Below are positions 32,834 through 35,800 of a DNA stretch of 36,210 nt, piece after piece. Source of the stretch: Collodictyon triciliatum (taxonomy: Eukaryota); NCBI GenBank assembly GCA_043381765.1, contig JBHJMP010000879.1:1-36210 (forward strand), in the 5' to 3' direction. Numbering within the stretch: position 1 is the stretch's first letter; each line of letters opens with the position of its first letter. The notes under the pieces are model-generated. The model worked only from the letters and a program-made list of their open reading frames with translations, was not told where the DNA came from and did no database searches. The translations under genes were made by a program, and so were the position numbers.

Positions 32834-35800
32834 ATGGAAAACTTGCAAGTGGGGAAGCTTCTCGGCCGCGGGTCATATGGTGCCGTTTACCTTGCGCACG
32901 ATCTTGTGAGGCAGAAGCGATGTGTGCTGAAGCGGGTTCGGTTTTCAGAGGTGAACAAAGAGGAGGCTAGAAAGATTCAACAAGAGGTTTGTAATCAATT
33001 TCATATCATATCTTCACAAATACAAATATTAATTCCAGGTGCATAAATATCATTACCTTTTTGAAATAGTTATTAACTTACCATGCAAGAGTATTTCATT
33101 TTTATAAATACCTTTGTTGGACACTTATCTATCTATCTATCTATCTATCTATCTATCTATCTATCTATCTATCTATCTATCTATCTATCTATCTATCTAT
33201 CTATCTATCTATCTATCTATCTATCTTTCTATCTTTCTATCTTTCTATCTTTCTATCTTTCTACCTTTCTATCTTTCTATCTTTCTATCTTTCTACCTTT
33301 CTATCTTTCTATCTTTCTATCTTTCTATTTTTCTATTTTTCTATCTTTCTATCTTTCTATCTTTCTATCTTTCTATTTTTCTATTTTTCTATTTCGACCA
33401 TGTCGTTCATGTTACAAACTATATTTACATATTTACTGCTTTTTTTTCTGTCACAGACATATTTCAACGAGAATGTTGTGCAATAAAACGATATTTTTTT
33501 TGCCATATTTTTCTTCATAGATCAACATTCTGCAATCCTTCGACCACCCTAATATTGTCAAATGCCATGAATGGTTTAAAGACTCGGAAAACGGGATGCT
33601 CTGCCTTGTAATGGAGTACTGCAGTAAAGGCGACTTATTCGAGTGCATAACGAGGCAGAATGGTACTCTATTCGAAGAAAAGGTATTTCTCCATAATTTT
33701 TGAAAAATAAAAGGTATTTGTATTCAATCGTGAGAATCTAATTGGTTAGGGCATTCTTTTTTTCTTTTTGTAGGAAATTTTAATATGGTTCCATCAGATG
33801 CTCCTAGGTCTGGAGCACATGCACAAAAATCGAACGATTCATAGAGATATCAAAACAAAGAACATATTTCTTACAAAATATAATATTGTAAAAATAGGTA
33901 TGAAATTGCTTACTTTCAGATATCTACCACTAAAGCGTGGAATGAGTCACAAATATTATATATTTCACACAATTCCTCCTCCTGCTATTATGTCCGCATT
34001 CTTCTCTAAAATACAAAAAAAAAAAAAAAAAAAAAAAAAAAAAAAAAAAAAAAAAAAAAAAAAAGGCGACTTCGGATGCTCACGTGTCCTTGGGACCATG
34101 GAGTTAGCACAATCTGTGAGAACTCCCTTTGAGTGTCACATACATTATATATATGCCGATTTCGTTTTGGAAAACCATATTACTCTGGAAGATGACATGC
34201 GATACCCCCTTTATACTCACTCAATTTCTGGATTTCTTAGTTTGTGGGAACACCTTGTTATATGGCACCCGAACTTGGCACTGGAAAACCATATCCTCTC
34301 CAGAACTAAAAAAAGAAAAAAGAAGGAAGGACAACAGAGTCCTTTTACCCAATACATGCTCATATAATTTTTGCTATATCTCCTTTCTTAACAATAAGAA
34401 CACTATAACTATAATAATAATATACAATATTTTCAAAATACCGGCCCTTTCACTCTGGAGGAAATTTGTATAAATTGTGCGTAAAATATTGTTTATGTAT
34501 GATTCTTGACAGCTTCCTTACATATGATTACAAGACCGATGTATGGGCTCTTGGATGTGTCCTTTACGAATTGACATGTCTTAAACCTCCTTTCGCAGCA
34601 GAGGTAAACCATTTTTATGGATCAGATACTGTATTTTTAATTTAGATACTTAAATATTCCGTTTTCAATTAAGAGACCATTAAATAGTTTTTTTTCAAAA
34701 TAAAAATGAAGCGGATATAAAATTATGATTTGAAATATCTTTACCCTGCATATCAATTTATTTATATATATATTTTAGAATCTTTATAAATTATCGAAAA
34801 TGATTCGGAAGGGCGAATATGCACCCATCCCGTCCGTATTTAGCAACGATCTTGTAATATTTTTTGATTTCCTAAATTGCTATAATAGCCTACGATATAG
34901 AGTCGTTTTTTTTTTCTTTCTTAATGCGTCGCTGACTTTTTTATAGAGAGATTTGATAGCTCGGATGATGAATATCGAGCCCGATGAACGGCCTTCGCTT
35001 GCTCAGATTCTAGAGATGAATTTTGTGAACAAGACACTCGCAGACATATACACAAACCTGATTATACAGACACAAAAACAATTGTAAGACACGATTTTTT
35101 TAAAATAAACTGTCTGCTTTGAAAACTCAATAATGCTGCAGGCAAATATCACGAAATCCAATAAACATTTTAGGGGAGTGCATGATTCAGTAGACTTTGG
35201 CGCAAGTATCGCGGCCATTAAAGTAGAGGTTGTTGATTTTAATTACCTAATTTAGTTAGATTTTCATATTTTTACTAGCTCATATTACTTAAAATGCCCT
35301 TGGATAAGGAAGGAAAAGTGAATGATGAGCCTCTAGTAACCATTTGGCTGACGAATTTCTAGTCTATTAATTTGATATACCATCGTATGTACGTAGGAAC
35401 GACCCATCGATTTATTAAGTTCAGTGAATGTTATTATCAAGGATGCCACAAACAAGAAGATACAAGAGATCGACAAAAAGCTTGATGTACACAAACGTTT
35501 ACATATCCTTTCATTAATTAATTTATTTCCACTTTATCAATATACCTTTTTGTTAGTGCTGTATATTCATTTTCCAAATCACTATTCACATTTCATTAGG
35601 AAGAGCAAGGAAAGATTGGAAATATTATGAAGAAAGAGGAGTTTCGAAAATCTGTTGTTTACAAGTCAATCAGAAAGCTAATGGCTGTCGAAAAGTTTCT
35701 CCCGCCGGCCCCGAAAGCGAGCGAAATGGCATACGGAGAGGACGGTGTATTAATCCCTTCAGGCCATCATACAACACCACCAGTGGGCCACGACGAGTCG

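Follow-up and report, generated by a model that had tools for sequence, protein, structure and literature searches.

An AT-AC U12-type intron shared by NEK kinase paralogues in a probable CRuMs genome

A NEK-family kinase gene of a little-studied freshwater protist, probably one of the Diphyllatea (CRuMs), very probably carries a canonical AT-AC U12-type intron, one that appears to be excised by the minor spliceosome and to be both old and shared among paralogues. The gene lies in a stretch of DNA 36,210 nt long, all of which we analyzed and call the window, from a host genome labeled G000 (L-numbers denote loci and C-numbers contigs). An initial annotation had placed a U12-type AT-AC intron at 34291-34521, within the NEK kinase domain, and the splicing signals, a related protein, and the paralogous genes all agree with this placement.

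The kinase model reads through 11 exons (476 codons, zero stops), and its other nine introns are all GT-AG. The gene and the two exons that border the AT-AC intron are as follows:
32834..36049, plus strand: NEK-family kinase gene, 11 exons, extending past the window edge
32834-32986, 33521-33682, 33774-33897, 34066-34115, plus strand: exons 1-4
34241-34290, 34522-34603, 34779-34853, 34947-35083, plus strand: exons 5-8
35174-35228, 35397-35486, 35600-36049, plus strand: exons 9-11
34241..34290, plus strand: exon 5, activation loop to APE+6, with a Pro codon split in phase 2 at its end
34522..34603, plus strand: exon 6, kinase subdomain IX
When exon 2 was used as a query against a protein collection of 5.8 billion clusters, a single candidate was returned, the Diphylleia rotans protein P0124. 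This EukProt entry is Trinity-derived (transcript-based); it represents a spliced product and says nothing of an intron in the D. rotans gene. Identity between the window kinase and P0124 is 77% over the first 262 residues (the kinase domain). Exon 5 is 100% identical to P0124 residues 164-181 and exon 6 is 93% identical to residues 181-207 (both tblastn), the latter also matching Pkinase positions 174-198. Among solved structures the best relative of P0124 is NEK1 (E 1.9e-65), followed by NEK7 and NEK2, and all matches at E ≤ 1e-40 are NEK chains (16/16). Judged by these relatives, the window kinase, whose N-terminal kinase domain is closest to NEK proteins, is a member of the NEK (NIMA-related) family.

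Elsewhere in the same gene, intron 3 is without a pyrimidine tract, its AG being preceded immediately by some 48 consecutive A (34017-34065); the assembly may be faulty here, or the acceptor unusual. Neighboring genes identified with Pfam include a JAB/MPN protease exon at 13101-13250 (minus strand), which we take to be BRCC36-like, an aspartyl/asparaginyl beta-hydroxylase at 23989-24270 (minus strand), and an alkaline phosphatase at 26500-28270 (minus strand). A further neighbor at 18400-21200 (plus strand) is presumably ZMYND10-like, and the exon of it that we tested had no Pfam match.

The host is probably a member of the Diphyllatea, and thus of CRuMs, the sister group to animals, fungi, and amoebozoans, since D. 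rotans is the nearest named relative for both NEK and HSP90 (two genes, with no tree). The window NEK exon (exon 2) is 76% identical to D. rotans. Among the 120 matches listed for a G000 HSP90 exon, D. rotans shows 84% identity, no other named protein exceeds 73%, and metagenome proteins that lack a species name reach 92% and 77%. The genome holds two close copies of cytosolic HSP90 (L005-L008, on contigs C907 and C1088), which may stem from a recent duplication, be alleles, or point to a second strain among the assembled DNA.

The intron shows the features by which U12-type introns are recognized, namely an RTATCCTY donor, a conserved, U12-complementary CTTRAC branch site about 8-20 nt from the 3′ end, AT-AC or GT-AG ends, and no long polypyrimidine tract:
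34291..34521, plus strand: AT-AC U12-type intron, 231 nt, phase 2
34291..34299, plus strand: U12-type 5′ splice site ATATCCTCT, with C at +8 and not the commoner T
34307..34309, plus strand: in-frame TAA, reached on intron retention
34384..34403, plus strand: internal U12-like branch motif TTTCTTAAC, with its A at 34391, followed by AG 34397-98, AC 34400-01, and AC 34402-03
34503..34510, plus strand: branch site TTCTTGAC, with the branch A at 34509, 12 nt before the 3′ end
34520..34521, plus strand: AC acceptor
The intron begins with ATATCCTCT and ends with TTCTTGACAGCTTCCTTAC. Its branch A, which the initial annotation had correctly put 12 nt before the terminal AC, is separated from that AC by 10 nt that hold no long polypyrimidine tract. 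Predicted pairing energies are -5.6 kcal/mol for the donor with the 5′ end of the host U11 and -4.0 kcal/mol for the branch site with the branch-binding stretch of the host U12, with the A bulged. In these signals, and in being a phase 2, lone minor intron among major ones, the intron resembles AT-AC introns of animals and plants (which combine an ATATCCTY donor with an AC acceptor and a CTTRAC branch site lying 8-15 nt before the 3′ end) as given in the available part of PMC6717393. The human/mouse list in that source contains both ATATCCTCT donors and TTCTTGAC branch sites, and C at +8 is found in 18/342 of its mammalian ATATCCTN donors. The human and mouse introns differ in belonging to another lineage and in including no NEK gene (0 occurrences in eight files of the list).

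Excision of the intron restores the protein of the relative. The retained frame would read P-Y-P-L-Q-N-stop, in keeping with the rapid encounter with a TAA that had been described for the unspliced frame, and the spliced frame reads K-P-Y-D-Y-K, with the junction in phase 2 of Pro, codon 180. The spliced junction peptide, expected to be NEK-typical, is an exact match to P0124. It was also rightly noted that the boundary can slide, but the repeat present at both junctions is CATAT (5 nt) and not ATAT; it permits six equivalent registers, and canonical ends occur in one of these, AT-AC. Among RNA contigs of four runs over 34070-36050, none from the host spans 34290/34522. One RNA-type contig, from run X1, shows three GT-AG joints downstream in the kinase gene and begins at 34955, so it stops short of the AT-AC intron. 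A run X2 piece at 34523-34558 was rejected as a host transcript, its 5 differences in 36 letters pointing to another organism's kinase, and run X4 had no contig placed on this interval. Under our preferred reading, the window kinase gene is expressed.

A minor spliceosome is encoded by the host genome, and this conclusion is supported directly. In searches that scored the best 40-50 candidates for each snRNA against Rfam cut-offs, we found among those candidates one gene each for U12, U6atac, U11, and U4atac, all full-length. The expectation that the genome would encode all four was borne out above cut-off for U11 (55.3 bits, cut-off 39), U12 (72.1 bits, cut-off 53), and U6atac (75.7 bits, cut-off 33), while U4atac falls just below (47.4 bits, cut-off 53; E 1.7e-5) and is predicted to pair with U6atac (duplex -32.2 kcal/mol vs. 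-17.5 +/- 3.4 in shuffles, 1/1000 of which were as low). For the predicted minor-spliceosome proteins the outcome was similarly mixed: the CENATAC family (PF14968) is represented by N- and C-terminal exons on the same contig (77.1 and 30.8 bits) and SNRNP25 by a PF18036-type exon (30.5 bits), all above cut-off, and a C-terminal piece of PDCD7 (U11-59K) scores 22.2 bits, below its cut-off of 27. The snRNA contigs are tied to the window's organism by composition alone, with tetranucleotide correlations to the window of 0.63-0.84, compared with 0.47-0.79 for 30 other G000 loci and 0.12-0.66 for 28 metagenome loci. Two exons near the snRNA genes were sought as further links to the host; an arrestin exon had no match among 758 candidates, and a second exon of no known family had five weak repeat-type matches. 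In the Sm-site regions of both U11 (L003:1501-1633, AAUAUUUG) and U4atac (L004:602-729, AAUGUUUG), a purine breaks the U run.

The U6atac gene belongs to a variant class:
L002:1501-1616 = G000:C2465:9630-9745: U6atac, CC variant
As the sole U6atac found in G000, it has GCCGA where vertebrates have AAGGA and lacks the pairing that the vertebrate form makes with the donor at +6 and +7. The available part of PMC2396436 reports CC variants from Acanthamoeba, Physarum, oomycetes, Trichoplax, cnidarians, a sponge, and Physcomitrella, and in it Davila Lopez et al. regard the variant as hard to explain and possibly ancestral. The host shares GCCGA with the protist CC-variant minor spliceosomes described there, but it is a CRuMs genome and the list, as available, includes no CRuMs; within the literature searched, this is apparently the first CC-variant U6atac from that group. 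We rejected the idea that the CC U6atac favors donors with G at +6/+7, as that pattern had 37 matches vs. 45 in the control; G at +7 also occurs in mammals (20 occurrences in the available PMC6717393 list).

Other NEK genes of the host have an intron at the same position. A query with exon 6 gave 43 places in G000, and we read the DNA of 30 kinase loci, the window included. An AT-AC intron at the same codon and phase is present in 8/30 (the window, L050, L053, L054, L055, L057, L059, and L067) and a GT-AG intron at that codon and phase in 3/30 (L052, L061, and L065). Six NEK-like loci (L051, L056, L060, L062, L063, and L066) have an intron elsewhere in the stretch and none at this codon, and the remaining 13 are apparently other kinases with no intron at this position. 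The eight AT-AC copies measure 103-231 nt; their donors are ATATCC, and each has a branch motif 9-12 nt before its 3′ end. Individual copies depart from consensus, at the donor in L055 (G000:C924:1665-1792, ATATCCGAA) and at the branch site in L054 (CCTTCAC) and L067 (CCCTAAT). The AT-AC bearers are pairwise 41-72% identical in trimmed kinase rows (trimming overstates identity), and the same codon and phase in genes this divergent would make the intron older than the duplications behind at least 11 NEK genes of G000. A paralogue tree built from partial rows had low support and was set aside. The three GT-AG copies are probably minor-to-major converts, on the assumption that conversion runs from minor to major, the direction assumed in the available part of PMC10639083. 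Two of the loci without the intron, L062 and L066, are a NEK2-like pair with 97% identity in the kinase rows, for which a recent duplication, allelic copies, or the presence of a second strain may be the reason.

Minor introns also occur outside the NEK family. The claim that the kinase intron is the only one of its kind holds for the window, where none of 31 RTATCCN sites marks a second credible minor intron, and fails for the genome, which has many, including those in seven other NEK genes. A strict pattern of donor, branch, and AC had 49 matches in G000 vs. 26 in a reversed control; about half of the 30 strict-pattern loci that we read have a plausible join, and the other half are probably chance, in line with the control count. 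Flanks of plausible joins with a Pfam match belong to an RRM gene, a WD40 gene (which we take to be WDR4-like), a zinc carboxypeptidase, and a DUF4457/KATNIP gene, and most others match no family. Two of these are located as follows:
L029, G000:C2260:5978-6125, minus strand: AT-AC minor intron of the RRM gene, presumably an SF3B6/p14-like splicing factor
L032:1501-1987 (G000:C2322): KATNIP/DUF4457 gene, in which a 111-nt exon is flanked by two AT-AC introns, both 188 nt long
SF3B6 is missing from the available human/mouse minor-intron list (PMC6717393), in which the two minor introns of human KIAA0556/KATNIP are separated by 111 nt. Human and host genes both have a 111-nt exon with a minor intron on either side, and the listed human donor comes after ACA, as does the second G000 KATNIP donor, although the host is AT-AC at both introns and the listed human donor is GT. 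The equal layout, compared as such, suggests that this pair of introns may have been inherited from a common ancestor. We found no support for a minor-intron expansion in G000, and no sign of one like that in Physarum, with a loose and noisy pattern (255 matches vs. 203 in the control). An apparent enrichment of C at +8 (4/17 introns, in the window, L053, L012, and L039, vs. about 5-8% in mammals) was likewise rejected, these introns being few and pattern-selected.

We propose that the ATATCCT donor would pair with U11 and the branch site with U12, bulging A34509, and that U4atac/U6atac and U5 would complete the minor spliceosome. A34509 would then attack the A with which the intron begins, and ligation of the exons at AC 34520-21 would restore K-P-Y-D-Y-K. 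In evolutionary terms, the intron would have been at this codon before the NEK duplications, with eight copies staying AT-AC and three becoming GT-AG.

Splicing of the AT-AC intron by the major (U2) spliceosome, or by a minor/major hybrid, is very unlikely. The donor is off consensus at +8, the CC-variant U6atac pairs poorly with minor donors, and AT-AC ends alone do not set the splicing class (PMC10639083, as far as its available text goes). Against these points, the U12 donor core is complete, with a U12-complementary branch site 12 nt before the 3′ end, the nine GT-AG donors of the gene look different from this donor, four minor snRNAs and CENATAC are all present, and ATATCC donors with near-terminal branch motifs recur in seven paralogues. 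We give still less credence to a gene that is broken by the stop at 34307 or spliced from GT/GC to AG, with the AT-AC signals arising by chance. Chance can produce a donor motif: a perfect ATATCCTTT at 35503-35511 lies inside intron 10, which the RNA-type contig shows to undergo GT-AG splicing, so the donor motif alone is no proof of a minor intron. It also fits this account that the junction has no RNA contig across it and that the frame stays open with six other joins, five of them GT/GC-AG and one AT-AG. The initial annotation did not list these joins, none of which gives the orthologue sequence. Four of the five GT/GC-AG joins delete core kinase residues, and the fifth (GC 34278 to AG 34459-60) replaces 4 residues by 20, none as in the orthologue. 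The AG at 34511-12, dismissed earlier for want of an in-phase GC, does join in frame to the AT donor (+3 residues), but it lies just 2-3 nt after the branch A. Furthermore, downstream exons are spliced in the RNA-type contig, the joint chance of donor, branch, and AC at the protein-fixed gap is ~1e-7 (a rough value from window base frequencies), and these signals recur at this codon in seven other genes.

Removal by the minor spliceosome might have a regulatory side, either because the internal branch motif leads to an unproductive 3′ splice site or because slow minor splicing limits the kinase, as the initial annotation had supposed; we consider such an addition to the preferred reading unlikely. 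The three acceptors that follow the internal motif all lead to premature stops (Pro-Leu-stop for AC 34400-01, a stop 22 codons on for AC 34402-03), and the predicted pairing with U12 is stronger for the internal motif (-8.6 kcal/mol) than for the terminal branch site (-4.0 kcal/mol). A branch-plus-acceptor site of this kind arose in 29/5000 dinucleotide shuffles, for a pattern spotted after the fact, and the motif is absent from the seven paralogous AT-AC introns. Far more plausible, and in our view only a little short of an even proposition, is that the shared NEK position goes back to gene duplication within CRuMs, or to independent gains at a protosplice site, and not to a pre-LECA intron. 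None of 80 metagenome NEK loci has an intron at this position, and one has an intron a few codons upstream. We take these loci to be mostly ciliate-like, given how their sequences look and their TAA/TAG read-through, and this, together with their having been chosen by exon score, makes the count weak evidence. A restricted origin is also favored by the partial, poorly supported paralogue tree, by the lack of any mammalian NEK gene with this intron as a minor intron (PMC6717393 list), and by four to six NEK genes with introns nearby and none at this codon. On the other side stand the identity of 41-72% among AT-AC bearers, even in trimmed rows, and the rarity of minor intron gain. U12 introns common to pre-LECA paralogues are also documented (PMC9120149, supplementary file 6, as available), and, according to the available part of PMC2031824, LECA already had five or more NEK clades.

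U12-type introns and CC-variant U6atac were already known, and the present analysis adds the NEK paralogue series and the CRuMs snRNA set. A full-text search of the literature gave no relevant paper on CRuMs, Diphylleia, or Collodictyon in connection with minor splicing and nothing relevant on NEK genes with U12-type introns. CRuMs names are likewise missing from the available main text and supplement of Larue and Roy 2023, from the available supplement of PMC11347168, and from the main texts, as available, of PMC9120149, PMC9887622, and PMC11039992, whose trees, figures, and data may list a CRuMs species or a minor intron of a NEK gene. The closest likeness to the NEK series is with the ancient-paralogue introns of PMC9120149, in which one position is U12 in some copies and U2 in others; the word "kinase" is absent from the available main text and supplementary file 6 of that study, and NEK genes may be in files 7-13.

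As U12-type introns go, this one is ordinary, an old example of a known system, and its value lies in its placement in a poorly sampled lineage. With the CRuMs snRNA set, the known distribution of minor-spliceosome loss becomes more complete, and the CC variant gains a lineage. For annotation, eight kinases would be truncated or mis-spliced by GT-AG gene finders. Eleven NEK paralogues with one intron position and two splicing classes offer material for dating the intron and for studying conversion and, if our reading is true, would be a minor-to-major conversion series within one genome, in a family of ciliary and cell-cycle kinases.
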